DNA from: an uncultured Gammaproteobacteria bacterium
Lineage (GTDB): Bacteria > Patescibacteriota > Microgenomatia > Daviesbacterales > UBA10151
Reading direction: 5' to 3'
NCBI GenBank assembly: GCA_964415615.1
Contig: CAYQAW010000005.1
Span: 1,902-65,901, forward strand
DNA length: 64,000 nt
Below the pieces are notes generated by a model that did no database searches, was not told where the DNA came from, and worked only from the letters and a program-made list of their open reading frames with translations. The translations under genes and the position numbers were made by a program. Numbering within the stretch: position 1 is the stretch's first letter; each line of letters begins with the position of its first letter. Of the stretch, positions 3,291 through 63,349 are shown piece by piece.

Positions 3291-4876
3291 TGTCTAATAT
3301 AGCCTTTTATTTAAAGTATCGTCCTCAAACTTTGGGAGAATTAGTAGGTCAAGAAGCTGTCAGAAAAACCCTTCTCTCATCTTTTCAAAATAGTAAGCTC
3401 TCACATGCTTATCTATTTGTAGGCCCAAGGGGAACTGGGAAAACCTCAACAGCTCGAATACTGGCCAAAATGGTCAATTGTGAGGGTAAGGGGGAAAGCG
3501 GAAAGGGTGAAGTTCCCTGTAATCAATGTTCAATCTGTGTTTCCATTACTGATGGATCTAATTTAGACCTTATTGAAATTGATGCTGCTTCAAACAGGGG
3601 TATAGAAGATATCAGGTCTTTAAGGGATAAAATCAAGCTTGCTCCCAGCAGTTGCAAAAAGAAGGTCTATATTATTGATGAAGTTCATATGTTAACTCCT
3701 GAGGCTTTTAATGCTTTACTTAAAACTTTGGAAGAACCACCCTCTCATGTTTTATTTATTTTAGCAACCACCGAAGTCACAAAAATCCCTCAGACAATTT
3801 TATCAAGAGCTCAAAAGTTAGATTTTAAACTGGCCACATCTTCAGAATTACTGGAAGCTTTAGAAAGAATTGTTAAAAAAGAAGACATAGATATAGATCA
3901 AGAGGCTTTAAAAGCCTTGGTTAAAAAATCAGATGGATCTTTTAGAGATGGAGTTAAGCTTCTGGATCAAGTAGCTTCTATTGGGGAGAAAATTACCACT
4001 TCCTTTATTGAAGAAAATCTTAAATCCTCACAATTTGAAAGTATTTTGAGTCTGATACAAGCTTTTAAAGATAAAAATGCTGCTGAAGGATTGCTTAATA
4101 TTAGCAAGCAACTGGAGAGTGGAGTTGATGCTAAACAATTAATTTTGTCTCTGATGGATACTTTTAGGAGTTTAGTTTTTATTAAAAATAATGTTGGTGA
4201 GCAGTTGGTAAAAAATGGTTTAATAGAAGATAAATATCAGCAGTTAGTAAAAATTTCTGAAGATTTATCTATATCTGATTTAACTGAAAGTCTAAATGCT
4301 TTGCAAAACGCTTTGGAGAAATTAAAATTTGCTTCAATCCCATCTTTGCCTTTGGAGCTGGCAGTTGTAGAGATTTGCGGAGAACAATTGTCACATAAGA
4401 CGATAGATGATGGAAAATTGAAGATAGTGATAGAAGATAGCAAGATAGAAGATAGAAAAGTAATCAATCTTCAATCATCCATAGTCAAAGATTCATCTTC
4501 TATCATCTATGATCAATCGTCTAGCAATGATATCCAAAAGCTTAAGGAAAAGTGGACCTTTGTCTTAGAAACAATCAGACCATATAATTTTTCCTTAGAA
4601 GCTCTACTTAGGAATGTGATAATTAAAGACTGTACTTCTAATGCTGTAATCATGGAGGTGCCTTATTCTTTTCACCAAAGAATTTTAGAATCTCCTAAAA
4701 ACAGAGATCTTTTGGAGTCAATTTTCTCAGATATTTTAGGAAGAAGTATTAAGGCATCTACAGTATTGGGATTCAGGCCAACCAGAAAAGAAGATATAGC
4801 AAATATAGAAATAGCCCAGGACGATGAAATCATCAGAGCAGCAGCAGAAATCTTCAACTCTGATACAGTCAATTAA
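3290..4876 (+). CDS. dnaX: DNA polymerase III subunit gamma/tau
   Basis: AAA+ Walker A LFVGPRGTGKTS. Zinc module NCE...PCNQCSICV. Followed downstream by ybaB and recR. Confidence 0.9.
   Translation: MSNIAFYLKYRPQTLGELVGQEAVRKTLLSSFQNSKLSHAYLFVGPRGTGKTSTARILAKMVNCEGKGESGKGEVPCNQCSICVSITDGSNLDLIEIDAASNRGIEDIRSLRDKIKLAPSSCKKKVYIIDEVHMLTPEAFNALLKTLEEPPSHVLFILATTEVTKIPQTILSRAQKLDFKLATSSELLEALERIVKKEDIDIDQEALKALVKKSDGSFRDGVKLLDQVASIGEKITTSFIEENLKSSQFESILSLIQAFKDKNAAEGLLNISKQLESGVDAKQLILSLMDTFRSLVFIKNNVGEQLVKNGLIEDKYQQLVKISEDLSISDLTESLNALQNALEKLKFASIPSLPLELAVVEICGEQLSHKTIDDGKLKIVIEDSKIEDRKVINLQSSIVKDSSSIIYDQSSSNDIQKLKEKWTFVLETIRPYNFSLEALLRNVIIKDCTSNAVIMEVPYSFHQRILESPKNRDLLESIFSDILGRSIKASTVLGFRPTRKEDIANIEIAQDDEIIRAAAEIFNSDTVN
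4844..4876 (+). repeat. Left copy of a 33-nt imperfect direct repeat (dnaX 3' end, 29/33 identical to 5579-5611)
   Basis: gcagaaatcttcaactctgatacagtcaattaa versus gcagaaatctttaattctgatacaataaattaa. Confidence 0.85.
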
Positions 4877-11022: not shown

Positions 11023-11334
11023 TTGGACGTGAACATTTTGGTTAAAAGTTCATTTTGTTTTCGATCGAAAAATTTTGTCACAAAAAACGCCAGTGGTTTT
11101 GGTGGTATAATATTACTTAATATGAAATTAAAGATTGCTCAAATTAAAGAAAAAGTTGTGCCTATTTTAAAAGGAGCAGAGGTAACCCGCTCATCTATTT
11201 TTGGTTTCTATGTCCGTGCTTGCGTGATAGAATCCTGGATGAGCAGGTTCGCATTCTATGATAAAAGACCCACAAATTTTTCTTTCAGATATGAGAAGTA
11301 CGCTTATACGCGGTTATTTTCAAGTAGATCTTGA
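11023..11334 (+). CDS. Hypothetical protein (doubtful)
   Basis: ORF only. Contains a 17-nt exact match to the purL coding sequence. Confidence 0.2.
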   Translation: MDVNILVKSSFCFRSKNFVTKNASGFGGIILLNMKLKIAQIKEKVVPILKGAEVTRSSIFGFYVRACVIESWMSRFAFYDKRPTNFSFRYEKYAYTRLFSSRS

Positions 11335-14159: not shown

Positions 14160-14222
14160 AAGTTTAGTATACCATGATTTTCAGATTCTTGACTTATAGC
14201 CTGGATTTAGTTATATTAGGCT

Positions 14223-17530: not shown

Positions 17531-20356
17531 ATGATACAGAAAGTTAGAGTGCAAACAGTAATTGGTCCTGATTTAAAGGGTGACGGGATATTAAATGATA
17601 TCCAAAATATCTTAGGGATAAAAGAGGTTACCAAAGTTTCGGCAATTAAAGTTTACCGTTTAGAGGGAATTTCCAACAAAGAGGCAAAAATGCTGGCTGA
17701 TAAATTATTATGTGAATCAATCAACCAATCATGTGTTATAAATGAATCAATAGTTAACTCCAAAGCTAAGATGGTCGAAATAGCTTACCAACCAGGAGTA
17801 ATGAATCCCGAGGTTGCATCCATTATAAAAGCTGCTGGGGATTTAAAAATTAAACTTTTAGCCTGTGATAGTTCTTGGGAATATGCTTTTTTTGGTGTTT
17901 CTCAATCTGAAGCGATAGAAATTACTCAAAAACTTAAACTCTACAACCCTCTGATAGAGCACATAGTAAAAGAAGAACCGCTAACTTTAGTTATTAAAGG
18001 TAAGGCAGAAAAAACTCAAATTATTGCAATTAGAAATTGCACTGATGAGCAATTAATGGAATTATCCAAAGATAAACTATTTTTAAATTTGGAAGAAATG
18101 CAAACTATTAAAAAGCATTTTCAAAATATTAAAAGGGATCCTACTGATTTAGAGCTGGAAACTTTAGCTCAAACTTGGAGTGAGCATTCTGGGCATAAAA
18201 CTTTTAAAGCTAAAATTGTAGTAGATGGTAAAGAAAAAGATCCTCTAATAATAAGGCTTAAGAAAGAAGCTTTAAAGCATGATAAAAATATTGTTTCAGC
18301 ATTTTCTGATAACTCTGGGGTGATGGATTTTTACGATGGTTTCGGAATTTGTGGCAAAGTAGAAACCCATAATGCTCCTTCAGCTATAGAACCTTATGGG
18401 GGGGCTATGACTGGATCTGGAGGAGTGTTTAGGGATATTGCTGCAACTGGGAAGGGGGCAAAAAATATAGCCTCTACAGATATTTTCTGTTTTGCACCAC
18501 TTGATCTACCAGCAAAAGATTTACCAGCAGGGTGTTTGCCACCACAGTATTTATTAAAAAGGGTAGTTACTGGTGTTAAAGATTATGGAAATAGAATAGG
18601 AATTCCTACTAATAATGGATCTGTTCATTTCCATAAAGACTTCAGAGCTAAGCCTTCAGTAATTGTGGGAGCATATGGAATTGTTCCTAAAAAATATGCT
18701 TTAAAAGATGATCCCCAAAAAGATGATCTAATTATTACTGTGGGTGGCAGGACTGGCAGGGATGGTATTCATGGAGCTACTTTTTCCTCAGGCATAATGA
18801 GCGAAAAAACGATAGATGTACATTCATCTGCAGTTCAAATCGGAAATGCTATTGAGGAAAAAAGGACACTTGATGCGCTTTTGGAAGCCCGTGATCAAGG
18901 ACTTATAAGACTGGTCCAGGATTGTGGAGGTGGAGGTTTTTCTTCTGCTATTGGAGAGATAGGGGAAAGTTTGGGAGTTTCAATACAACTAGAGAAGGCT
19001 CCTTTGAAATATCCAGGACTTTCTCCTTGGGAAATTTGGGTGTCAGAATCTCAAGAGAGAATGATTGTGGTGCTGTCACAGAATAACTTAAAAGCTTTTG
19101 AAAAAGTTTGCAGAAAATACAATGCGGAAATGGCAGTATTAGGAAAATTTGATGGAAGCAAAAAATTAAAAGTAACTTTTGGTAAAGAGATTGTAGGTGA
19201 TTTGGATATGCAGTTTTTGCATCATGGGTTGCCAAAGAGAGTATTAAAAGCAAGTCATCAGCCATCAGTCATCAGCTATCAGACAAAACAAGTAAAAGAA
19301 CCAAAATCAGAAAAAGAATGGATCGGTGTTTTGAAAAAAGTATTAGCACATGGTAATGTTTGTTCAAAAGAACCAATTATTAGGTTATATGATCATTCGG
19401 TGCAGGGGACTAATGATTTACAGCCCTTTTCAGGAGTAAACCTTGATGGTCCAAATGATTCTCCAGTTTTAAGACCATTTTTGGATAAAAACTATGGCAT
19501 GATAATTTCACATGGCTTAAACCCAATTCTAAATAAAATAGATCCTTACTGGGGAAGTATCTGGGCAGCAACTGAAGCATTGTCTAATTTTGTAGCAGTT
19601 GGAGGAGACTACAAAAATGCATCTTTGATTAACAATTATATTTGGCCATTTCCAGATCCCGAGTCTTTATGGTCTTTGGACAGGTCTGTTGATGCAGTGG
19701 TAGATTTTATGAAAGTTTTTAAAATTCCAGTAATTTCTGGAAAAGATAGTTTGTCTTCAACTTATAGAAAGTCCAGTGGAGAGGTTATTAAAATCCCTCC
19801 AACACTTTGTATTTCTGTATTAGGAAAAATTAAAGATAGTAGAAAAACTGTGACTGCAGATTTTAAAAAAGTTGGATCAACAATAGTCTTAGTTGGGGAG
19901 CTTGACGAGCAATTGGGTGGATCAACCTATTTTGATGTTCAGGGGGTTCTAGGGTCTAATATACCTAGGATTGATTTGAAGATTTTACCAAAAACTTTTA
20001 ATGCTCTTTATAAGGGAATACATACAGGGAAAATCCTATCTTGCCATGATGTTTCAGAAGGTGGGATAATTTCTGCTATCTTTGAGATGTGTGTTGGAGG
20101 AAATTGTGGAGTAAAGATCGACAAAATTTCTCGATCGAAAAATTTTGATGAAACCATTTTTAATGAAACTGCAGGATGTTTTATTGTTGAGGTAGAAAAT
20201 GAAGGAATAGCAGAAAAACTTTTCAAAGATGTTCCTTATAAGATTATTGGAGGAACTAAAACAGAAAAAGAAATAGAAATAAAAAACATTTTTAAAGCAA
20301 ATGTTGATGACTTGAAAAAATCTTGGCAGGAACCAATGAAGGAAATGTTTCCATGA
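17531..20356 (+). CDS. purL: FGAM synthase subunit PurL with a ~215-aa PurS-like N-terminal extension (PurS-PurL fusion)
   Basis: Conserved PurL start DPTDLELETLAQTWSEHSGHKTF appears only at ~aa 215. Tandem AIR-synthase-related domains follow. 941 aa against ~740 for the small PurL. Confidence 0.8.
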   Translation: MIQKVRVQTVIGPDLKGDGILNDIQNILGIKEVTKVSAIKVYRLEGISNKEAKMLADKLLCESINQSCVINESIVNSKAKMVEIAYQPGVMNPEVASIIKAAGDLKIKLLACDSSWEYAFFGVSQSEAIEITQKLKLYNPLIEHIVKEEPLTLVIKGKAEKTQIIAIRNCTDEQLMELSKDKLFLNLEEMQTIKKHFQNIKRDPTDLELETLAQTWSEHSGHKTFKAKIVVDGKEKDPLIIRLKKEALKHDKNIVSAFSDNSGVMDFYDGFGICGKVETHNAPSAIEPYGGAMTGSGGVFRDIAATGKGAKNIASTDIFCFAPLDLPAKDLPAGCLPPQYLLKRVVTGVKDYGNRIGIPTNNGSVHFHKDFRAKPSVIVGAYGIVPKKYALKDDPQKDDLIITVGGRTGRDGIHGATFSSGIMSEKTIDVHSSAVQIGNAIEEKRTLDALLEARDQGLIRLVQDCGGGGFSSAIGEIGESLGVSIQLEKAPLKYPGLSPWEIWVSESQERMIVVLSQNNLKAFEKVCRKYNAEMAVLGKFDGSKKLKVTFGKEIVGDLDMQFLHHGLPKRVLKASHQPSVISYQTKQVKEPKSEKEWIGVLKKVLAHGNVCSKEPIIRLYDHSVQGTNDLQPFSGVNLDGPNDSPVLRPFLDKNYGMIISHGLNPILNKIDPYWGSIWAATEALSNFVAVGGDYKNASLINNYIWPFPDPESLWSLDRSVDAVVDFMKVFKIPVISGKDSLSSTYRKSSGEVIKIPPTLCISVLGKIKDSRKTVTADFKKVGSTIVLVGELDEQLGGSTYFDVQGVLGSNIPRIDLKILPKTFNALYKGIHTGKILSCHDVSEGGIISAIFEMCVGGNCGVKIDKISRSKNFDETIFNETAGCFIVEVENEGIAEKLFKDVPYKIIGGTKTEKEIEIKNIFKANVDDLKKSWQEPMKEMFP

Positions 20357-30020: not shown

Positions 30021-30983
30021 ATGGTACAGGCAAAAACAATTTTAAAATCCCTGCCCCATATTTTAAAAGAAGTAAATATTCCTAACTTAGGTAAAAGATA
30101 TAATGGTAAGGTTAGAGATTTCTACATAGTAGATGGCAAGAGAATAATTATTACCACAGACAGACAATCTGCTTTTGATGTTATTTTAGGCCATATTCCA
30201 TACAAAGGAGCAGTATTGAACTTACTCTCATCATTTTGGTTTGAAAAAACCAAAGATATAGTCCCAAACCATATTATTTCTATCCCTGACCCAAATGTGT
30301 CTATTACCAAAGATGCCACCTTAATTCCAATTGAGATGGTAGTCAGAGGTTATATTAGTGGAGTTACAAATACATCTATTTGGGGATCTTATGAAAAAGG
30401 GGAAAGAGAAATTTATGGAATTAAATTTCCAGATGGTTTAAAAAAGAATCAAAAGTTGCTTACTCCTGTTATAACTCCTACCACCAAAGCTTCCAAAGGC
30501 CATGATGAAAGGCTAACAGAAAAGGAAATTTTACAAAAAAAGATTGTTAGCCCAAAAATATGGAAACAGATGAAAGAGGTAACTCTAAAACTTTTCGAAA
30601 GAGGAACAAAAATTTGCGCAAAGAAAGGAATAATTTTAGTTGATACGAAATATGAGTTTGGACTTTTGAATGGAAAACTGATTTTAATTGATGAGTTGCA
30701 TACTCCAGATGGATCCAGGTTTTGGATCAAAAAGACATACAAAGAAAGATTTGAAAAAGGCTTGGAGCCAGAAAATTTTGATAAAGAATTCTTAAGGCTT
30801 TGGTATGCCCAAAAAGGTTATAAAGGTAACGGAGTACCCCCTAAAATGAGTAAAGACTTAATAGTAAGTTTATCCCAAAGATATATTTCCATCTATGAAA
30901 AATTAACAGGCAAAAAGTTTAAAGTATTTGAGTATCCAATAGAGGAAAGAATAAAAAATAATTTAAGGAATATATATGCTTGA
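30021..30983 (+). CDS. purC: SAICAR synthetase (long, eukaryote/archaeal-like form)
   Basis: GKVRDFY motif. Start set at MVQAKT immediately after the purE stop. Confidence 0.8.
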   Translation: MVQAKTILKSLPHILKEVNIPNLGKRYNGKVRDFYIVDGKRIIITTDRQSAFDVILGHIPYKGAVLNLLSSFWFEKTKDIVPNHIISIPDPNVSITKDATLIPIEMVVRGYISGVTNTSIWGSYEKGEREIYGIKFPDGLKKNQKLLTPVITPTTKASKGHDERLTEKEILQKKIVSPKIWKQMKEVTLKLFERGTKICAKKGIILVDTKYEFGLLNGKLILIDELHTPDGSRFWIKKTYKERFEKGLEPENFDKEFLRLWYAQKGYKGNGVPPKMSKDLIVSLSQRYISIYEKLTGKKFKVFEYPIEERIKNNLRNIYA

Positions 30984-31656
30984 TGGACCAGCACAAATTG
31001 AAGGTAGCAGAGGAGCTTTTTCTTTTCTTCGGGATCGTTTAAAAAACCATCAATGGACTGAAGAGATTGAAGCAAGGTATAATTCCGTAGTAGAACCAGT
31101 AGGGATTGTTTCAGAGAGACAAGGCTTAGTGTCTGTATTTATAGATAGCCAAGCAATTAATGTGTTTGAAAAACACTGGAGGAGATATGGAGGTAGAGAA
31201 GTTGGAGGTTGGTCAATAGGTGAAGAAGGGATGGTTGGTAATCATCCATTTCAGCATATCACAACAGTAATACCAGATTTAGGCAGTTGATCAATGGGAG
31301 ATTTTAAATTCAACGGTTCTTTGGAAGCTCTAAATTATGTCAGACAAAGAAGGACACAAGGGGCAAGACTAGTAATTATAGGGACAGCGCATACTCACCC
31401 AACTGCCTGGTCAGGAAGAATAACTGGACCTGGGAGAGATTCATCTGTTTTTGCAGCATATGATCCTAGTCTGATAGTTGAAGAAGAATGGTCCAAAGTA
31501 AGAACTCACTTAGTTTTAACGCCACAAGATAATAATGCCTTGGATATTTGGCAAGCAAAATCTACCAAAGAACCTTGGGAAAAAAGATTAGTGAGAAATG
31601 GATATTTTCTTTTGCAGCCTAAGAATACTCCCCGAAGTAGGATAAAATTACTTTAG
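30976..31656 (+). pseudogene. JAB/MPN (JAMM) metalloprotease-like gene interrupted by an in-frame TGA at 31288-31290
   Basis: Part 1 carries E-x2-G-x-S-x-G (REVGGWSIGEEG). Part 2 carries HTHP...S...D about 62 aa downstream, which is the spacing expected of the JAMM E...HxHx7Sx2D signature. TGA is a genuine stop elsewhere in this window. GC is above local background. Confidence 0.45.
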
Positions 31657-31681
31657 TGATATTTAATCTAATAAACTTTAC

Positions 31682-31710
31682 TTAAACTTGACGATCGTTA
31701 CAAATAAGTA
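31682..31710 (+). repeat. Left copy of a ~29-nt direct repeat flanking the PaaX-like cassette
   Basis: ttaaacttgacgatcgttacaaataagta versus ctaaacttaacgatcgttaatatttagta at 32233-32261 (23/29 identical). Confidence 0.6.
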
Positions 31711-31728
31711 TATTCTGAAAATATACCA

Positions 31729-32232
31729 ATGATTAAGAAAAATTCATTGAGCTATTTTTTGCTATTAGGTTTGGAGAAATCAATTCAAAGCGGAGTTTTG
31801 TTGATGGATTTTGCCTATAATTCCCACCTTTATGTTTACCCTGGACGTGACCCAAGAGAAATTAATTATGGTGCTCTTTATCAGGCAGTTAGAGATCTGC
31901 GCGAAAAGGGTTTTATTGAAACAGAAAAAGATGGGAGCAAGCTTTTATTGAAGTTGACAGAGACAGGAAGACAAGAAGCTATCATCAGAAAATTACTTAC
32001 AGAAGAAGTCTTGGATGGTAAATGGAGAGTTGTCATTTTTGATATTCCAGAAAAGCATAAAAAATTAAGGCACGCCTTAAGGTGGAAATTAAGAGAGTGG
32101 GAATTTATTCCCTGGCAAAAGAGTGTTTGGATATCTAAAAAAGATTTAGTAGTTCCATTAAGAAATTTTATAAACGAGATAGATATTTCTCAATGGGTTA
32201 AAGTGTTTACAGCAGAGGATATCAATCTTTAG
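31729..32232 (+). CDS. Small PaaX-family-like regulator (N-terminal winged helix plus PaaX middle-domain-like region)
   Basis: Winged-helix-like N-terminus (GALYQAVRDLREKGFIETEKDGSKLLLKLTETG). The next segment, LDGKWRVVIFDIPEKHKKLRHALRWKLREWEFIPWQKSVWIS, resembles PaaX WDGKWLLLL...LIWQGFG. Confidence 0.45.
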   Translation: MIKKNSLSYFLLLGLEKSIQSGVLLMDFAYNSHLYVYPGRDPREINYGALYQAVRDLREKGFIETEKDGSKLLLKLTETGRQEAIIRKLLTEEVLDGKWRVVIFDIPEKHKKLRHALRWKLREWEFIPWQKSVWISKKDLVVPLRNFINEIDISQWVKVFTAEDINL

Positions 32233-32261
32233 CTAAACTTAACGATCGTTAATATTTAGTA
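32233..32261 (+). repeat. Right copy of the ~29-nt direct repeat
   Basis: Direct sequence comparison. Preceded by the palindromic 10-mer tttagctaaa. Confidence 0.6.
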
Positions 32262-32295
32262 AAGTAACTGAAAGTTATAAAGTCATATTGATCAC

Positions 32296-32817
32296 TTATA
32301 TTTCCTTATACATATAAATGTGATCTACAAATTTTCCTTTGTGAAGGATGCCCTTGGGGAGTCTGCCGTATTCAACAAATCCCCTTTTTTCATACAAACT
32401 TTTTGCTATTGGGTTGTCTCCAAAAACTCCCAGATCAATTATTTTTAGACCTGTTAAATTCTTTTTAGCTTCTTTTAAAACTTTTTCCATCAAAGTTTTA
32501 CCTATACCTTTATTTCTAAAATTCTTTGCCAAAGTAATACCAAAAACTCCAATATGTTTTTCAGCCCTATCTTTCATTGTTATCCCAGAAACACCAATTA
32601 ATTTGTCTCCAGCAAATGCAAAAATTTGGACAGACTTTTTATCAATAATCTTTTTCAACTCTCCCTCAAGCCATTTTGCTTCCATTTCCCAGGTAATCTC
32701 CTCTCCCTGAAAAAGAATAAAAGTTTGCTCTTTGGAGATAGTATTAATATATTCCCAGACAGCTTTTAGGTCATTTTTGGTAGGGTAACGGAAGGTAATA
32801 TTTTTTGTCAGTTTCAT
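32296..32817 (-). CDS. GNAT-family N-acetyltransferase
   Basis: Acetyl-CoA binding motif FRNKGIGKTLMEKVL (Q/RxxGxG/A). Confidence 0.75.
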   Translation of the reverse strand: MKLTKNITFRYPTKNDLKAVWEYINTISKEQTFILFQGEEITWEMEAKWLEGELKKIIDKKSVQIFAFAGDKLIGVSGITMKDRAEKHIGVFGITLAKNFRNKGIGKTLMEKVLKEAKKNLTGLKIIDLGVFGDNPIAKSLYEKRGFVEYGRLPKGILHKGKFVDHIYMYKEI

Positions 32818-32839
32818 GATATAATTATATCAAGGCAAT

Positions 32840-33823
32840 ATGGCAACCAACAATGGGTTTGTACTTTTAACAGGAACTGCAAATTTACCCCTAGCCCGAG
32901 ATATTGCCAAAATTTTAGGAAGAGAAGTTGATGAAACTGTGACTGTTTTTGCAGATGGTGAGAAAAGAATTGTTATCCCCGAGAATTTGAGAAGAAGAGA
33001 TGTTTTTATTATTCAGCCAACTTGTCCTCCTCAAGTTGATGCCAATATCATGGAGCTGCTTTTAATAATAGATGCAGCAAAAAGATCATCTGCTGCAGAG
33101 ATTTCCGCTATAATTCCTTATTTTGGATATTCCAGGCAGGATAGAAAAGACAGACCCAGGGTTCCTATTTCTGCTTCTTTGGTTGCAGGGTTGATAGAGC
33201 ATGCGGGAGCAGATAGGATTGTGACAGTTGATATTCATAGCGAGCAAGAGCCAGGATTTATTAAAAGCCCCTGGGATGTTTTATACAGCAGCTATTCTCT
33301 GCTGCCGAAACTAGAAAAATACTTTGGAAAAAACCTGGTGGTAGCATCACCTGATAAAGGTGGAGTTCCAAAGGCTGCATTTTTTGCAGAACTTTTAGAA
33401 GCAGATGGAGTTGCTATAGTTTTTAAAGAAAGGGATGTAATGCAGAGAAATTCCAGTAAGGTTTTAGATATGATAGGTCATGTTGAAGGCAAAGATGTTT
33501 TAATTGTTGATGATATGATTGATACTGCAGGAACTGTATGTGATGCTGCGCAGTTGTTTGCCCAAAGAGGAGCAAAAAGTATTTCTGTTGCTGCTACTCA
33601 TGGAATCTTTTCTGATCCAGCTCCTGGCAGACTAGAAAAATCTGTTATAGAAAAGATTTTTATTACAGATACTGTGCCAATCAGAAAAGAAATGCTGCAA
33701 AATTCTAAATTAACTGTTATTTCTGTGGCAGAACTTTTGGCAGAGGCTATTAAACGTATTTATAATGGTGATTCACTCTCGGAAGAGCTAATACCTAAAA
33801 CTCACAAAGAAGAGAGAAACTAA
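32840..33823 (+). CDS. prs: Ribose-phosphate pyrophosphokinase
   Basis: PRPP-binding DDMIDTAGT; VDIHS; 327 aa. Confidence 0.85.
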   Translation: MATNNGFVLLTGTANLPLARDIAKILGREVDETVTVFADGEKRIVIPENLRRRDVFIIQPTCPPQVDANIMELLLIIDAAKRSSAAEISAIIPYFGYSRQDRKDRPRVPISASLVAGLIEHAGADRIVTVDIHSEQEPGFIKSPWDVLYSSYSLLPKLEKYFGKNLVVASPDKGGVPKAAFFAELLEADGVAIVFKERDVMQRNSSKVLDMIGHVEGKDVLIVDDMIDTAGTVCDAAQLFAQRGAKSISVAATHGIFSDPAPGRLEKSVIEKIFITDTVPIRKEMLQNSKLTVISVAELLAEAIKRIYNGDSLSEELIPKTHKEERN

Positions 33824-39027: not shown

Positions 39028-41391
39028 ATGCCCCAAAAGTACACTTTACTTTTTGAAGAAGTAAATATTGATGATGTTACTGAAGTAGGTGGTAAAAATG
39101 CTTCTTTAGGGGAGATGATCCAGCAGTTAAAGGATATTAGAATTCCTAGCGGATTCGTAGTGACTGCTACTGCGTATAAACAGTTCCTTGCAGAAACAGG
39201 ACTTGATAAGTATATTAGCGAACAGCTAAAAGATCTAAATACTAGAAATTTAAAAGACTTACAAATAAAGGGTAAAAACATTAGAGAAAAGATTATTAGT
39301 ACTTCTTTTCCTGATGAGTTAAATCAAGCAATCCAATCTGCTTTCGAGGCAACTGAAAAAAGATATGGCAAAGGAGCAGATTTTGCAGTCAGGTCTTCTG
39401 CTACAGCTGAAGATTTGCCAGAAGCTTCATTTGCAGGAGAGCATGAAACTTATTTAAACATTAGAGGGTTGGAAAATATTTTGAGAGCCATTAAAGCAGC
39501 AATGGCTTCACTTTTTACCAATAGGGCTATATCTTACAGGGTAGATAAAGGATTTAATCATTTGAAGGTTTATCTATCTGTGGGAGTACAAAAAATGGCC
39601 AGATCAGATTTAGGTTGTTCTGGAGTAATGTTTTCTCTGGATACTGAAACAGGTTTTTCTAATGTGGTATTAATCAATTCTTCCTGGGGTTTAGGAGAGA
39701 TGATAGTTCAGGGTGAGGTTACTCCTGATGAGTTTTTAGTCTTTAAAAAAACTGCTACCATTATTGATAAAAAATTAGGAGTTAAGAATAAGAAAATGAT
39801 TTATGGAAGTGATGCTCCTACAAAAATTGTGCAAACTTCAGAAAAAGAAAAACAAACACTTACTCTTTCAGATAAAGAAATTCTAACACTTGCCAGATGG
39901 GCTATGAAAATTGAAGATCATTACAGCAAGAAAAAAGGCAAATGGACACCTATGGATATGGAGTGGGCAAAGGATGGTATTGATAATAGACTCTATATTA
40001 TCCAAGCCAGGCCTGAAACTATTCATGCAGTCAGGGATTTATCTAAGCTTAAAGAATATATATTAGAAGAAACTGGAGAAAAAATAGTAAGTGGCGCATC
40101 AGTGGGAAGCAAGATTGCAACAGGTAGGGCAAGAATTATCTTTGATCCCAAAGATATTGAGGAATTCAAAGAAGGGGAAGTTTTAATTACTAAAATGACA
40201 GATCCTGATTGGGAGCCAATTATGAAGATTGCTTCAGCAATTGTTACTGATCAAGGAGGAAGGACTTCACATGCAGCAATAGTTTCAAGGGAACTGGGGA
40301 TTCCAGCAATTGTTGGTTGTATTGATGCCACAACTAAAATTAAAAACGGACAGGATTTAACTGTTGATTGCTCCCAGGATTTAGGTACAGTTTATAAAGG
40401 CAAATTAAAGTTTAAAATTGTCGAGCACGATACTAAAAATATTCCTCAAACAAAAACTCATATTATGATGAATATTGCAACACCTCAGACAGCTTTTGAA
40501 AAATCTTTTTTACCAAATGAAGGGGTAGGACTTGCCAGGGAAGAATTTATTATTACCTCAGAAATTGGGATTCATCCTCTGGCTTTAATAAATTATGAAA
40601 AATTACCAAAACTGCTACAGAAAAAAATTGATAAAGTTACTGTTGGGTATTCTGATAAAAAGCAATTTTATGTTGATAGATTAGCTTACGGTGTTGCTAA
40701 AATCTCAGCTGCTTTTTTCCCAAATCCAGTTATTGTCCGTTTTTCTGATTTTAAAACTAATGAATACAGATCACTTTTAGGAGGATATTTATTTGAGCCA
40801 AATGAAGAAAATCCTATGATTGGTTGGAGAGGGGCCTCTAGATATTATTCTCCAGATTTTGCTCCTGCTTTTGTATTAGAGCTTGAAGCTATTAAAAAGG
40901 TAATTGGAGAAATGAGTTTAACAAATACTGTAGTGATGGTGCCTTTTTGCAGGACTCCAGAAGAAGGTAAAAAAGTTTTAGATTTGATGGAAAAAAATGG
41001 AGTTTCAAAAAAAGAGTTTAAAGATTTAAAAGTTTATGTGATGTGTGAAATTCCTGCTAATGTAATAATTGCTGATGAGTTTTTGCAAGTGTTTGATGGG
41101 ATGAGTATTGGCAGCAATGATTTAACACAGCTTACTTTAGGTATTGATAGGGATGGAAATGAAAAAATAAAAGGCATCTCTAATGAAAATGATCCAGCTG
41201 TTAAAGAATTAATCAGGCAGGTAATCAAGAAATGTAAAGCAAAAGGAAAATATATAGGTATCTGTGGTCAAGCCCCTTCTGATTATCCAGACTTTGTAAA
41301 GTTTTTGGTAGAAGAAGGTATAGATAGTATGTCTTTAAATCCTGACTCCATCATTAAAACTATACTTGCTGTGCATAAATTGGAATCTTGA
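39028..41391 (+). CDS. ppsA: Phosphoenolpyruvate synthase (pyruvate, water dikinase)
   Basis: Phospho-His domain GGRTSHAAIVSRELGIPAIVG, PEP-utilising C-terminal domain; 787 aa. Confidence 0.9.
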   Translation: MPQKYTLLFEEVNIDDVTEVGGKNASLGEMIQQLKDIRIPSGFVVTATAYKQFLAETGLDKYISEQLKDLNTRNLKDLQIKGKNIREKIISTSFPDELNQAIQSAFEATEKRYGKGADFAVRSSATAEDLPEASFAGEHETYLNIRGLENILRAIKAAMASLFTNRAISYRVDKGFNHLKVYLSVGVQKMARSDLGCSGVMFSLDTETGFSNVVLINSSWGLGEMIVQGEVTPDEFLVFKKTATIIDKKLGVKNKKMIYGSDAPTKIVQTSEKEKQTLTLSDKEILTLARWAMKIEDHYSKKKGKWTPMDMEWAKDGIDNRLYIIQARPETIHAVRDLSKLKEYILEETGEKIVSGASVGSKIATGRARIIFDPKDIEEFKEGEVLITKMTDPDWEPIMKIASAIVTDQGGRTSHAAIVSRELGIPAIVGCIDATTKIKNGQDLTVDCSQDLGTVYKGKLKFKIVEHDTKNIPQTKTHIMMNIATPQTAFEKSFLPNEGVGLAREEFIITSEIGIHPLALINYEKLPKLLQKKIDKVTVGYSDKKQFYVDRLAYGVAKISAAFFPNPVIVRFSDFKTNEYRSLLGGYLFEPNEENPMIGWRGASRYYSPDFAPAFVLELEAIKKVIGEMSLTNTVVMVPFCRTPEEGKKVLDLMEKNGVSKKEFKDLKVYVMCEIPANVIIADEFLQVFDGMSIGSNDLTQLTLGIDRDGNEKIKGISNENDPAVKELIRQVIKKCKAKGKYIGICGQAPSDYPDFVKFLVEEGIDSMSLNPDSIIKTILAVHKLES

Positions 41392-41417
41392 CAATGTAAT
41401 ACAAATGTAATACAATA
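41392..41417 (+). repeat. Tandem 12-mer (aatgtaatacaa x2) in the brnT promoter region; putative operator
   Basis: caATGTAATACAAATGTAATACAAtatt, seen directly in the sequence. Confidence 0.5.
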
Positions 41418-41696
41418 TTGACCAGAATAGTAATTAGAAAATTGATTTGGGATGATTGGAATGTTGAACATATTAAGAAGCATAATGTTATACAGTCTGA
41501 AGTCGAGGAAGTAGCTAAAAATATTGTAACTCATCGGAAATCTAAGCTAGGTAGATATCTAATAATTGGGAGAAGTGGTTCAAGAATAATATCTGTAGCT
41601 ATTAGTAGAAAAGAAATTGGAGTTTACTATCCAGTTACAGCAAGAGATTCAGCCAGAAAAGAAAGGAGGCTAGTGTATGAAAAAGAAAAAATTTAA
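41418..41696 (+). CDS. brnT: BrnT-like (DUF497) ribonuclease toxin
   Basis: LIWDDWNVEHIKKHNV matches the BrnT F-x-WD-x-x-N-x-x-H-I-x-x-H-G-V signature; 92 aa. Confidence 0.7.
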   Translation: MTRIVIRKLIWDDWNVEHIKKHNVIQSEVEEVAKNIVTHRKSKLGRYLIIGRSGSRIISVAISRKEIGVYYPVTARDSARKERRLVYEKEKI

Positions 41697-41952
41697 ATTT
41701 CCTGATTTTAATAAAATGACTTATGAAGAAGAAGCAAATTGGTGGGATACCCATGATTGGGGAGAGTTTTGGGATGAACTTGAGGAAGTTGATATAGTAG
41801 TGGATCTCCACAAGCCTAAAGATGAAACTATCATAGTGAGGTTGCAAAAACAATTTAAGGATAAACTGGCAAAAGTTGCTAAATCAAAGGGTTTAAATAT
41901 GTCTGCCTTGGCGCGTCTGTGGTTAATGGAAAAACTCCAATCCAGCCACTAA
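41677..41952 (+). CDS. brnA: BrnA-like antitoxin
   Basis: Overlaps brnT by 20 nt. C-terminal RHH-like ...VRLQKQFKDKLAKVAKSKGLNMSALARLWLME. Confidence 0.65.
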   Translation: MKKKKFKFPDFNKMTYEEEANWWDTHDWGEFWDELEEVDIVVDLHKPKDETIIVRLQKQFKDKLAKVAKSKGLNMSALARLWLMEKLQSSH

Positions 41953-41957
41953 GACTT

Positions 41958-41982
41958 TACCAATTTGTAACGATCGGTCAAT
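41958..41982 (-). repeat. Inverted third copy of the TTGAC(C)GATCGTTACAAAT motif, adjacent to the palindromic tttagctaaa
   Basis: Reverse complement attgaccgatcgttacaaattggta versus cttgacgatcgttacaaataagta at 31688-31711. Confidence 0.55.
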
Positions 41983-42039
41983 TTAGCTAAAGTTCAATCT
42001 GTTCAAGAATATATATCCTATTCTACATACCATTGACTT

Positions 42040-42366
42040 TTGTACGAAAGTGTACTAATATGTACATATATGACACAAGTAATGAAAGCATCTGAAGCCA
42101 GGCAACAATGGTCTCAGTTGCTAAATAACGTATTCCGTAATCAGGCTAGGGTAGTAGTTGAAAAGAGCGGTATTCCCATCGCAGCTGTAATTTCAACTGG
42201 AGAGTTAAAGCGTTTTATTCAGTTAGAAGAACAGAGAAAAAAGCATTTCAAAGCTTTGGATAGAATGAGAGCAGCGTTTAAAGATGTTCCTGCCAAAAAG
42301 TTAGAGCAAGAGATTAGTAAAGCTTTAGCTGAAGTTAGATTGGAAAAACGAAAACAACTAAAGTGA
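42040..42366 (+). CDS. Phd/YefM-family antitoxin
   Basis: MKASEARQQWSQLLNNV...ARVVVEKSGIPIAAVIS matches the Phd/YefM N-terminus. The true start is probably an internal Met. Confidence 0.65.
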   Translation: MYESVLICTYMTQVMKASEARQQWSQLLNNVFRNQARVVVEKSGIPIAAVISTGELKRFIQLEEQRKKHFKALDRMRAAFKDVPAKKLEQEISKALAEVRLEKRKQLK

Positions 42367-42608
42367 TTTCAGCAGTTTTGGATACTAATGTTTTGGCATC
42401 AGGTACTATAAGTTATTCAACTCCTCCAGGACAAATACTAAATGCTTGGCGCAATGGTAAGTTTGAACTATTAAGCGCCAAAGCAAGTTATTTCATAACA
42501 GGGGATGGGTCGTTGCTCCGTAGAGTTGGCCCAATTTATAAAGGAGTGACTTTTCTTAGTCCTGGGGATTTTGTTAAGATACTCAAAGGAAGGATTAATG
42601 AAAATTGA
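42363..42608 (+). pseudogene. PIN-domain toxin with an in-frame internal deletion (81 aa against ~135 aa); probably inactive
   Basis: N-terminal VLDTNVL...RNGKFELL and C-terminal YFITGDGSLL...GVTFLSPGDFVKIL match the two ends of TIGR00305-type PIN toxins. The ~55-aa middle is missing. Confidence 0.5.
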
Positions 42609-43773
42609 GGATATAAAGCTTAAGGTTATTTCTGATTCCAGAGGACAAGATACGCTAGAGGCTACATTAAAATCTGGAGGTTTTGCGTCTATTGCTTCTG
42701 TTCCTGCTGGAAAGAGTAAAGGAAAATTTGAAACAACTTCTATTGAGCCAAGTTTGGCCATCAGTAAATTTGAAGAGATAAAACAAGAAATCTTAAGCAA
42801 AGATTTTTCCTCAGTTTCAGATCTTGATGACCTCTTAATAGAGTTAGATGGAACTGATGATAAATCTAATCTCGGAGGGAATTTAATTTTAGTTTTATCA
42901 ATTGCTTTTACCAAACTTTTAGCAAAGATAAATAATCTGCAAACATATCAGCTAATTGGGCAAATATTAGGGAAGGATAATAAAAAGTTTCCTTATCTTT
43001 ACTTTAATTTAATAGGAGGAGGGTTACATGCCCAGAATAGCTTGCCTTTTCAGGAATATATCCTGGTTACAAAATTTGATTCCCCTGCGAAAGGGTTACG
43101 ATTTGCTCAGGATATGGTAGGAAAATTAGGAGAAGATATAGCAAAAAATTTTGGAGAAATAAGAAGAGGAGATGAGGGAGCCTATACTATAAGAAGTGAT
43201 GATCCAGAGTTAGGTCTTAAGGTATTGCAAGGAAATCTAGAAGAGACAGAGGTAAGTTTAGCTCTGGACGTCGCAGCCTCAACTTTTTTCCAGAATGGCT
43301 CTTATAACATAGGAGATAAAATCATGAGTAGAGTTGATTTACTTTCCTACTATGAACTACTTACTACCAACTATAAACTCTTATCTATAGAAGATCCTTT
43401 TTCTGAAAATGATATAGAAGGATTTATTGAAATTTGTCAAAAATTTAAAGGGTCTTTGTGGGTTATTGCAGATGATTTAACAGTTACCAATCCAAAGTTA
43501 ATTAAAAAAGCTGGCAAGGAAAAGGCTGCTTCTGGAATTATAATAAAACCGAACCAAATAGGTTCTGTGTCAGAAACTCTTGAGGCTGTAAGGTTGGCGC
43601 AGAGTTTTGGGTGGAAGATAATTGTTTCTCATAGATCGGGAGAAACTATGGATGATTTTATTGCTGACTTGGCTTTTGGAGTAGGAGCAGACGGATTAAA
43701 GAGTGGTGCTCCAACACAACCACAAAGATTGGTAAAATATGAAAGATTGATGGAAATAGAAAGGAGTATCTAA
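42598..43773 (+). CDS. eno: Enolase
   Basis: SHRSGET, IKPNQIGS motifs. Start chosen at MKIEDIKLKVISDSRG. Confidence 0.9.
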   Translation: MKIEDIKLKVISDSRGQDTLEATLKSGGFASIASVPAGKSKGKFETTSIEPSLAISKFEEIKQEILSKDFSSVSDLDDLLIELDGTDDKSNLGGNLILVLSIAFTKLLAKINNLQTYQLIGQILGKDNKKFPYLYFNLIGGGLHAQNSLPFQEYILVTKFDSPAKGLRFAQDMVGKLGEDIAKNFGEIRRGDEGAYTIRSDDPELGLKVLQGNLEETEVSLALDVAASTFFQNGSYNIGDKIMSRVDLLSYYELLTTNYKLLSIEDPFSENDIEGFIEICQKFKGSLWVIADDLTVTNPKLIKKAGKEKAASGIIIKPNQIGSVSETLEAVRLAQSFGWKIIVSHRSGETMDDFIADLAFGVGADGLKSGAPTQPQRLVKYERLMEIERSI

Positions 43774-62155: not shown

Positions 62156-63349
62156 TTATGATGTCAGTTTTTGGATAGCTTCGTCAAGTGTGAGAGCTTC
62201 CTGGGTTTTTCCGCCAGCTGGCGGATTAAGGTTTTTGAGCATAACTTTATTTAAAGCAGCTTCTTCTGGGCCAATGATAATTACAAATGGTATTCCTTTT
62301 TGATCAGCATATTTGAGCTGTTTTTCCAGCTTAGTTTTTGGATCTAACCAGAGTTCGGAATTGATACCCCGTAAACGTAGCCGATCGGCTACATCTATGG
62401 CAACTGGGGACAGATCTTTATTAAAAATGGTCACCAGGACTTTGGTGGTAGTTAAATCTTTTGGAAACAAATCCATCTGGTCCATAGCTTCAATAACCCT
62501 GTCAAAGCCAAAAGCTACTCCGACAGCTGGGATTTGTTTATCAGCAAACATGCCAACTAAATTATCATATCTTCCGCCACCAGCCACTGATCCAACACTG
62601 TAACCTTCAATTTCTACTTCAAAAATCATGCCAGTGTAGTAATCAAGTCCCCGGGCTAAGGTAGGGGAAAATTCTACTCTATCTTCTAAAGCCATTAAAA
62701 TAGTTTTGATAGTTTCAGTAGGCTGTGAACTTTCAAATTTTTCTACTAAATTTGCAGGAAAGCCTGCTTCAGCTAACTGGTGAGAGACCTGTTCTTTACC
62801 AATTTTTTTCAGTTTATCAATGATCCTGATTGCCTGAGAAGACATTCCTACGAAAAGCTGACGGTCATTTATTAAGACCTTAAATTTTTTAAACCCTAAT
62901 GATTCTAAACACTTAATACTACAGGCAATTACTTCTGCATCAGAAAGAGGGGAGTCTAGTCCTACAGTATCAATATCACACTGTAAAAACTCCCTGAATC
63001 TGCCTTTTTGAGTATTTTCTGCTCTCCAGACAGGTTGAATCTGGTATCTTTTAAATGGAGTAGGGAGTTTATCACCATATTCTGCTACAACTCTAGCCAA
63101 AGGCACAGTTTGATCATATCTTAAAGCTACTTTTCTGCCACCATTGTCTGTAAAACGGTACATTAATTTATCGCCTTCCGTACCATATTTGCCCAAGAGT
63201 ACATCTTCGTACTCCAAAGCAGGGGTTTCTAAAGGTTCAAAGCCATAAGATTCAAAAACCTTTTTTAAAATATTTATGACATATTGCCTCTTCCTGGCCT
63301 CACCAGGTAAAAAATCCCTAAATCCTTTTAATGTTTGAGCTTTAATCAT
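62156..63349 (-). CDS. hisS: Histidyl-tRNA synthetase
   Basis: N-terminal KGFRDFLPGEA, class II motifs, anticodon-binding C-terminal domain. Confidence 0.9.
   Translation of the reverse strand: MIKAQTLKGFRDFLPGEARKRQYVINILKKVFESYGFEPLETPALEYEDVLLGKYGTEGDKLMYRFTDNGGRKVALRYDQTVPLARVVAEYGDKLPTPFKRYQIQPVWRAENTQKGRFREFLQCDIDTVGLDSPLSDAEVIACSIKCLESLGFKKFKVLINDRQLFVGMSSQAIRIIDKLKKIGKEQVSHQLAEAGFPANLVEKFESSQPTETIKTILMALEDRVEFSPTLARGLDYYTGMIFEVEIEGYSVGSVAGGGRYDNLVGMFADKQIPAVGVAFGFDRVIEAMDQMDLFPKDLTTTKVLVTIFNKDLSPVAIDVADRLRLRGINSELWLDPKTKLEKQLKYADQKGIPFVIIIGPEEAALNKVMLKNLNPPAGGKTQEALTLDEAIQKLTS

Follow-up and report, generated by a model that had tools for sequence, protein, structure and literature searches.

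The window analysed here is a 64,000-nt stretch of contig CAYQAW010000005.1, from a genome assigned to the Patescibacteriota, with a G+C content of 35%. About midway along it lies a gene for a 167-amino acid (aa) protein, a putative regulator, which is enclosed by two related palindromes, A and B (Table 1). The first-pass annotation had described these sites as ~29-nt direct repeats with a CGATCG core flanking the open reading frame (ORF), and both strings were located at positions 31682-31710 and 32233-32261. A repeat search showed that the similarity covers 38 nt in each copy (31673-31710 and 32224-32261); the two are 79% identical and spaced 551 nt apart. Each repeat forms part of an imperfect palindrome of ~40 bp, with CGATCG at its centre. 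Since A and B are both palindromes, each is at once a direct and an inverted repeat of the other. The sites are therefore repeats, as described, but they are not simply direct ones, and the window holds three copies rather than two, the third being palindrome C.

The exact 13-mer TTRACGATCGTTA is confined, within the window, to the A and B sites. When up to two mismatches were allowed, nine matches were obtained against 1.22 expected, a number that none of 100 shuffles reached, and the hexamer CGATCG itself occurs seven times where 0.47 occurrences are expected (~15-fold over-representation). Scoring of the whole window against an idealised 40-nt palindrome, with 20 shuffles as the control, singled out A (29/40), B (34/40) and C (31/40). 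All other positions of the window reached at most 24, and the peaks of the shuffled sequences ranged from 22 to 25. Chance is an unlikely source of the A and B repeats, and the motif, far from being abundant in unrelated places, accounts for three sites in 64 kb.

Table 1. Coordinates of the putative regulator gene, its predicted promoter and the three palindromes in the window
Feature	Positions	Strand	Description
Palindrome A, upstream operator candidate	31675-31714	none	ACTTTACTTAAACTTGA-CGATCG-TTACAAATAAGTATATT; core 31692-31697, 37 nt before the ATG
Promoter-like element inside A (predicted promoter)	31688-31716	+	-35 TTGACG at 31688-31693, sharing 2 nt with the core; consensus scan
Gene for winged-helix plus Cas2-like (PaaX_M) protein, 167 aa	31729-32232	+	Short form without PaaX_C; Pfam, AlphaFold (AF2) model, Foldseek
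Palindrome B, downstream operator candidate	32226-32265	none	TCTTTAGCTAAACTTAA-CGATCG-TTAATATTTAGTAAAGT; core 32243-32248
Palindrome C, third cognate copy	41954-41993	none	ACTTTACCAATTTGTAA-CGATCG-GTCAATTTAGCTAAAGT; core 41971-41976

The two palindromes around the gene differ in their relation to transcription signals. Two hexamers are candidates for the -10 element of the promoter predicted inside A, which falls in the right arm: TATATT (31709-31714, with a 15-nt spacer), at a position that is kept as TATAGT or TATAAG in orthologs, and the alternative TATTCT (31711-31716, with a 17-nt spacer). The candidate -10 ends 12-14 nt short of the ATG, with no recognisable Shine-Dalgarno sequence. The element of palindrome A is also found upstream of the orthologs in L001, L002 and L006-L010 (numbered loci of the comparison described below). 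In orthologs it reads CTTGACGATCG...GTATAGT and lies ~30-37 nt before the start codon, and in L006, where the genomic context is different, TTGACGATCG...GTATAGT is kept nonetheless. No promoter-like match was found in B, and no terminator-like site in the regions 30900-33000 and 41300-42700. Palindrome B covers the stop codon of the gene (TAG, 32230-32232), its core starts 11 nt after it, and the site is placed between the regulator gene and a convergent GNAT gene.

The encoded protein combines a winged helix with a Cas2-like domain. In the Pfam search, PaaX_M (PF20803) was matched over residues 95-164 (E = 3e-19, 69.3 bits against a cut-off of 24), winged-helix families were matched only below threshold (PadR, 22.6 versus 27), and PaaX_C (PF08223) had no match in the chain, which ends at residue 167. 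The PaaX equivalog TIGR02277 scored 31.3 bits and its cut-off of 264.55 was not reached, nor were the thresholds of the Cas2 models PF09827 (15.1 versus 23.8 bits) and TIGR01573 (12.9 versus 24.5). The AF2 model, built from 76 homologs with a predicted local distance difference test score (pLDDT) of 83, places in the winged helix the helices 7-35 and 48-60, a beta-hairpin at 63-76 and a helix at 78-91. The Cas2-like domain follows in the order beta-alpha-beta-beta-alpha-beta (strand 99-104, helix 108-123, strands 127-130 and 133-136, helix 141-150, strand 157-162). The best Foldseek match of this model was E. coli PaaX (8a39; E = 2.3e-4; 135 aligned columns), and the next neighbours were Rv0674, a Jannaschia PaaX-like protein, VapD and Cas2. 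When a sequence profile of the winged helix-turn-helix (wHTH) was searched against the PDB, the best match was AspA (E = 4e-5), over the recognition helix and the wing; a single-sequence PDB search with the Cas2-like domain gave no match.

Conservation in the family is concentrated in a few places. Residue D105, at the end of the first strand of the Cas2-like domain, is invariant in 76 sequences, and the strand QxSVW is invariant in the family alignment. No invariant His or Tyr and no HUH motif were found among the 76 sequences. In Cas2, the Asp that follows strand 1 has a catalytic role. Searches of defence-system, phage and NCBIfam libraries with the 167-aa protein returned nothing beyond weak wHTH or PaaX matches. 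Its closest homolog is a 94% identical hypothetical protein of Candidatus Daviesbacteria, which places the window in a genome of the Microgenomates, and no second copy of the gene was detected in the window by tblastn. The winged helix and the PaaX-middle domain that had been proposed from the sequence are thus both present, but an assignment to PaaX itself does not follow: the 167-aa protein is a truncated PaaX-like protein in fold and not PaaX proper.

The paired sites among relatives

Comparison was based on 80 loci from Microgenomates, Daviesbacteria and Curtissbacteria among them, in which a genome contributes several paralogs; 72 of the loci had a usable gene model, with identities of 35-78%. 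More than 554 relatives are encoded in species-representative genomes, again with several paralogs within single genomes. Among the 80 best loci, JACPDA01, JACOYE01, JACPKP01 and JACPKL01 each contributed three to four paralogs, and in L076 two family members (601-1101 and 3598-4089) lie within 3 kb on one contig.

A bracket of two palindromes with CG(A/G)(T/C)CG cores, one at the promoter and the other at the stop codon, was present in 62 of the 72 loci, so that most relatives carry the flanking repeats together with the gene. In these 62 loci, the upstream core is located 12-76 nt before the start codon (mode 20-22 nt), the downstream core begins at -15 to +26 relative to the end of the gene, and from core to core the distance is 521-572 nt, apart from one locus at 612. 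The two copies of a locus resemble each other: flanks matched at 23.6 of 40 positions within a locus versus 14.5 (standard deviation 4.2) between loci, and its own downstream copy was the best or tied-best match for the upstream copy in 34 of the 62 cases. The core is nearly invariant, and the arms differ between paralogs of one genome. As a control, the best 24-nt match between start region and stop region was determined for 310 other genes of the same loci. The median of the controls was 14 and their 99th percentile 17; the family had a median of 19.5, with 55 of 70 members above that percentile.

The bracket is also kept in distant relatives (30-39% identity), where the cores are others: CCATGG, CGCGACCGCG, GCTATCGC and GCTATAGC. 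These relatives come from Saccharibacteria and from several lineages of Parcubacteria (Woyke-, Giovannoni-, Staskawicz- and Zambryskibacteria), and they include the protein P0119. One distant relative has two palindromes on each side of its gene, an arrangement seen in L083 (338-437 and 993-1082). A profile search of 1.84 billion cluster representatives returned 4,381 clusters (50% identity) at E <= 1e-10, mostly of 160-190 aa. Taken together, these comparisons indicate that the bracket is ancient and has been under selection throughout a large family, rather than being a peculiarity of the window. PaaX_C is present in only a few longer relatives (P0114, P0116). In L207, which encodes a long form with PaaX_C (272 aa; sites at 1935-1968 and 2608-2642), the second CGATCG site is inside the coding region, ~660 bp from the promoter copy and roughly where short-form proteins would end.

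The promoter features seen in A recur across the family. In the 110 nt upstream of the gene, nearly all of the 72 loci display the same order: TTGACA, the core CG(A/G)(T/C)CG 9-10 nt further on, an A+T-rich -10-like hexamer and the ATG. As the distance from the core to the ATG is 20-22 nt in most loci, the mRNA would be close to leaderless. A perfect TTGACA at 9-10 nt from the core was found in 34 of 62 upstream copies versus 3 of 61 downstream copies. The gene that follows the regulator points the same way in 40 loci and towards it in 21, and retention of TTGACA in the downstream copy is independent of this orientation. The possibility that the downstream copy is the promoter or operator of the next gene was rejected as a general account, since that gene is convergent in 21 of 61 loci and the -35 is rarely kept, no oftener before co-directional genes.

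A metagenome-wide scan for the half-site pattern gave matches that were nearly all due to chance. The only relevant ones were L098, a 75% homolog with a B-type site, and L103, where the left flank of the locus that holds the half-site extends over just 231 nt.

A probable autorepressor and the competing explanations

The palindromic symmetry of the sites is uneven along their length: it peaks at ~0.9 at 8-13 nt from the edge of the core and falls to 0.5-0.65 beside the core. This pattern fits a protein that touches two outer half-sites, ~27 bp apart from centre to centre, together with the central hexamer, rather than a continuous stem. The explanation favoured here, with a probability of about 0.6, is that the protein is an autorepressor, that two operators bracket its own gene, and that it acts by looping and/or roadblock. 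The first-pass annotation had offered operator sites bound by the encoded wHTH protein as one of two possibilities, and this one is now strongly favoured on sequence grounds: A overlaps a promoter that is conserved in the family, and the copies co-vary within a locus and differ between paralogs. Further points in favour of autorepression are that the solved structure closest to the fold of wHTH plus PaaX_M is that of the repressor PaaX, and that the wHTH profile matches the palindrome-binding AspA. PaaX is the repressor of phenylacetate catabolism; it binds imperfect palindromes that overlap promoters and is released by phenylacetyl-CoA. AspA, from the Sulfolobus plasmid pNOB8 (4rs8, 5k5q), binds a palindrome upstream of its own operon.

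In the proposed mechanism, the N-terminal winged helix would read the DNA and the Cas2-like domain would most likely dimerise the protein. The target would be a three-part palindrome of ~40 bp, composed of outer half-sites, CTTTAG...CTAAAG in the orthogroup of the window, and the central CGATCG. As A lies on the promoter of the gene itself, bound protein should exclude RNA polymerase, giving rise to negative autoregulation. B would be a second, promoter-less operator for the same protein, and two functions can be envisaged for it. One is that A and B are bridged, forming a 551-bp loop around the gene that would stabilise repression; the other is that protein bound to B would stop the elongating polymerase at the end of the gene, and loop and roadblock may also operate together. 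A roadblock would end the regulator transcript and thereby insulate the regulator from the convergent GNAT gene. Insulation of this kind would concern a regulator gene that is presumably expressed at a low level and is set among strongly expressed housekeeping operons. C would be a further target, between two toxin-antitoxin operons. Together with an extra cognate copy in L017, it suggests that there are a few further targets. The L017 copy (~2079-2112), with 27 of 28 flank positions identical, lies ~100 nt upstream of the gene for a 221-aa protein that precedes the regulator, and would be an example of a non-self target.

Parts of this arrangement have parallels in known systems. PaaX of E. 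coli W (8a39; TIGR02277) likewise consists of an N-terminal winged helix followed by the Cas2-like PaaX_M. However, PaaX reaches a full length of about 280-310 aa with PaaX_C, and no paa genes are present near the regulator in the window or in the relatives. The family described here also differs in belonging to the candidate phyla radiation (CPR), in its many paralogs per genome, and in an operator that is unrelated in sequence and paired around the gene. Repression loops with two operators are known for lambda CI (OL-OR), LacI (O1-O2), GalR (OE-OI) and DeoR, and in phage lambda the region of the repressor gene has operators to its left and right. These loops serve as the working analogy, given that in them, too, one operator sits on the promoter and a second cognate one lies hundreds of bp away. 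The proteins are nevertheless unrelated, and here the pair encloses exactly one gene, with the distal site at the stop codon and the layout shared by the family; looping is only a candidate in this case, at spacings without helical phasing. Cas2 and VapD nucleases share with the 167-aa protein the beta-alpha-beta-beta-alpha-beta fold and the Asp of strand 1. Contrary to them, the domain is here fused to a wHTH and falls below the Cas2 thresholds. No CRISPR array, or any other repeat array, is present in the window, and cas1 and other cas genes are absent from the frequent neighbour families.

Several points weigh against autorepression from two operators. Neither a loop nor a roadblock requires a site exactly at the stop codon, and the link between protein and DNA is drawn from adjacency and co-variation alone. 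Divergence of the operators tracks the wHTH no better than the Cas2-like domain (partial Mantel r of 0.15 versus 0.42), and the co-variation test thus provides no specific support. The core-to-core spacing showed no helical phasing (nR^2 < 3 at all periods from 9.5 to 12). In the ~6 kb searched per locus, sites beyond the flanking pairs were few, namely C and the one in L017, and for a transcription factor the regulon looks oddly self-centred. A further point comes from P0119, a distant relative of 192 aa (L208, 885-925 and 1501-1539; also L209). Its sites are perfect palindromes of 42 nt and 38 nt with the core GCTATAGC, and the two differences between the copies are both mirrored on either arm, which a dimeric operator does not need; in this case symmetry itself seems to be maintained.

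It is unlikely that the gene and its palindromes form a mobile or selfish mini-cassette, in which recombination or cleavage would take place at the palindromes, and a unit of ~600 bp would be excised, inverted or moved by the wHTH-Cas2-like protein or by a recombinase of the host. The many paralogs per genome would then reflect past spread. The unit is indeed minimal and self-contained, with palindromes at both gene boundaries and the downstream one at the stop codon; the family has several paralogs per genome and thousands of clusters; and D105 is invariant in the Cas2-like domain. Some rearrangement is also apparent. In five orthologous clusters of pur genes, the genes directly beside the unit vary, with GNAT on opposite sides. 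The 63%-identical ortholog of L006 occurs in another context, after a diacylglycerol kinase gene, and the 94%-related L001 is without 498 bp (window 31178-31675), with a breakpoint exactly at the outer edge of A. C would be, on the cassette explanation, a solo copy between toxin-antitoxin modules. Against this, no integrase (IntI included), transposase or recombinase was recognised in the 167-aa protein or among the 25 most frequent neighbour families, and the protein has no HUH motif. The unit holds its place in the pur cluster in orthologs as distant as 62% protein identity, and neighbours are likewise conserved in other paralog groups. Near-identical copies of the unit at different sites were not seen, and the family has no relatives in the viral contigs of IMG/VR. 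The syntenic gap in the window that corresponds to the L006 unit (14160-14222) contains promoter-like sequence only, with no solo palindrome or scar. Finally, specialisation as a promoter is clear for the upstream copy and lacking in the downstream one. Given the lack of a recombinase, the stable pur synteny and the absence of relatives on viral contigs, the earlier proposal that the repeats are recombination sites of a mini-cassette has gained no positive support.

Among known elements, RAYT/REP and IS200/IS605 resemble the unit in having a gene of ~0.5 kb flanked on both sides by lineage-specific palindromes, with several lineages per genome. The unit differs from them in the lack of an HUH or Tyr motif, in the presence of only three palindromes in 64 kb, in its mostly weak hairpins and in the stable synteny of the pur cluster. 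Slightly more doubtful than a cassette in general is an unrecognised minimal selfish or mobile module of the CPR, whose protein would recognise the CGATCG-centred sites at the borders of its own gene and use the Cas2-like domain to nick or recombine them. Were it true, the protein would be a repeat-handling Cas2 relative outside CRISPR, and the several copies per genome would represent proliferation of an element, not diversification of a regulator.

To the same degree doubtful is the idea that the protein binds the sites for a non-classical purpose, such as a nucleoid or boundary element, spreading or bridging like that of AspA/ParB, or sequestration of a Cas2/VapD-like toxin domain, or that a shared host factor reads the CGATCG core. 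AspA, the best solved match of the wHTH profile, is a centromere-binding protein that spreads from its palindrome, and in structural similarity VapD and Cas2 come directly behind the PaaX proteins. The near-invariant core with differing arms, the few non-self targets seen and the CGATCG palindromes of other arm types in coding DNA of the window (20122-20147, in a purL-like gene, and 62377-62392) would also be in keeping with such a role. However, no partner ATPase or partition genes were found beside the loci, and the -35 and -10 elements fall exactly on the upstream copy, as they would with an operator. Besides, the core varies with the protein in distant relatives, which fits the encoded protein better than a universal factor. 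AspA itself is a stand-alone wHTH of 90 aa in a partition operon with ParA/ParB and, unlike the 167-aa protein, has no Cas2-like domain and no downstream site.

The last explanation regards the palindromes as hairpins or cruciforms instead of duplex operators. They would stabilise or terminate the regulator mRNA at its 3' end, or else form in DNA that is single-stranded or supercoiled, with the copies kept alike by conversion. B and the corresponding downstream copies lie within the transcript or where the gene ends, a z of -2.6 was obtained for B folded on the minus strand, and the perfect P0119 palindromes with their mirrored differences are accompanied by near-perfect 36-nt palindromes in L082. 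Mirrored differences are also enriched at positions 8-10 from the core (17 versus 8). In the main set, however, differences between copies affected a single arm in 382 cases and were mirrored in 48. Folding of the plus strand in the window gave weak hairpins (-4.4 to -7 kcal/mol, z from -1.8 to +0.5; for B, -7 kcal/mol and z = -1.8), and B lacks the G+C-rich stem plus T-run of an intrinsic terminator. Across the family, the mean fold of the downstream copies is no better than that of the untranscribed upstream copies (-9.3 versus -8.2 kcal/mol), and non-complementary arm positions on the sense strand include G-T (54) without a clear excess over A-C (42). With complementarity poorest beside the core, where a stem should start, and with the match of an upstream copy outside the transcript left unexplained, a structure-based element is the least likely of these explanations.

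To our knowledge, almost nothing is known about gene regulation in CPR/Patescibacteria, as these bacteria cannot be grown alone. An autorepressor of the kind favoured here would offer a first testable handle on it, and one that belongs to a large family with several paralogs in each genome. Because the probable operator is present twice around the gene, it can be read from the genome for most members. Dozens of natural protein-site pairs with a common core and differing arms could provide material for a recognition code and for orthogonal repressors. The conserved second site at the stop codon, whatever follows it, calls for a mechanism, be it a loop, a roadblock/insulator or recombination, and the Cas2-like domain would be linked to sequence-specific recognition of palindromic repeats outside CRISPR. 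Recombinant protein and short fragments of DNA would be enough to test all of these claims, no culture being needed. Full-text searches of the literature found no description of the family or of its bracket layout and, as far as could be found, a family-wide, gene-bracketing pair of cognate palindromes for a winged-helix autorepressor is undescribed.

Genomic surroundings and further CGATCG sites

Purine genes and further genes of the housekeeping type surround the regulator in the window and in 60 relatives; among them are carB, prs and genes for penicillin-binding proteins, a glycosidase and a sortase. As these neighbours are unrelated housekeeping genes, the regulator gene is the only constant partner of the sites. 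A conserved partner gene was considered and rejected, since GNAT recurs only in the orthogroup of the 167-aa protein and beside L069, where a 56%-identical GNAT adjoins an unrelated paralog. The GNAT gene (window 32296-32817) is downstream and convergent in the window and in L001, upstream and divergent in L007, L009 and L010, and absent in L002. Its placement could reflect a functional link, possibly acyl-CoA sensing, or a rearrangement hotspot at the palindromes. On the other side, between purC and the regulator (window 30976-31656), lie ORFs of 104 and 120 aa in the same frame, with one TGA between them (31288-31290). The JAB gene that had been placed here amounts to a hint below threshold: it joins the two ORFs across the in-frame TGA, and the joined product matched Prok-JAB with E = 0.026.

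Three other CGATCG sites of the window have arms of a different type. The one at 20122-20147 is a 26-bp palindrome with one mismatched pair, CAAAATTTCT-CGATCG-AAAAATTTTG, inside the 3' part of a purL-like ORF (17531-20356). Its form, GACAAAAT...CGATCG...ATTTTG, is that of the generic operator of other paralog groups, and no gene of such a paralog is present in the window. The suggestion that this site (20132) marks a cassette lost after carB was rejected, since the ORF is purL-like and is unmatched in the carB-linked loci. The second, at 11051-11081, is intergenic and has 16 nt (CGATCGAAAAATTTTG) in common with the 20132 site; its minus-strand reading is GTGACAAAATTTTTCGATCGAAAACAAAATGAA. The right arm is the same as in the downstream copy of L049 and one base off those of L033 and L034, and the site probably represents the target, or a relic, of some paralog whose gene lies beyond the window. 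The third (62377-62392) is a perfect 16-nt palindrome, GTAGCCGATCGGCTAC, inside a minus-strand ORF (62156-63349).

Palindrome C separates two adjacent toxin-antitoxin-like pairs, BrnT-like/CopG-like (41388-41952) and Phd-like/PIN-like (42033-42608). It begins 2 nt past the stop codon of the CopG-like antitoxin gene, with its core 19 nt past that codon, and lies ~40 nt upstream of the -35 of the Phd-like/PIN-like operon. The promoter of the BrnT-like/CopG-like pair, TTGACA-17-TACAAT, ends 1 nt before the start codon, so that the transcript looks leaderless, and it holds two tandem copies of ATGTAATACAA, which are probably the pair's own operator.

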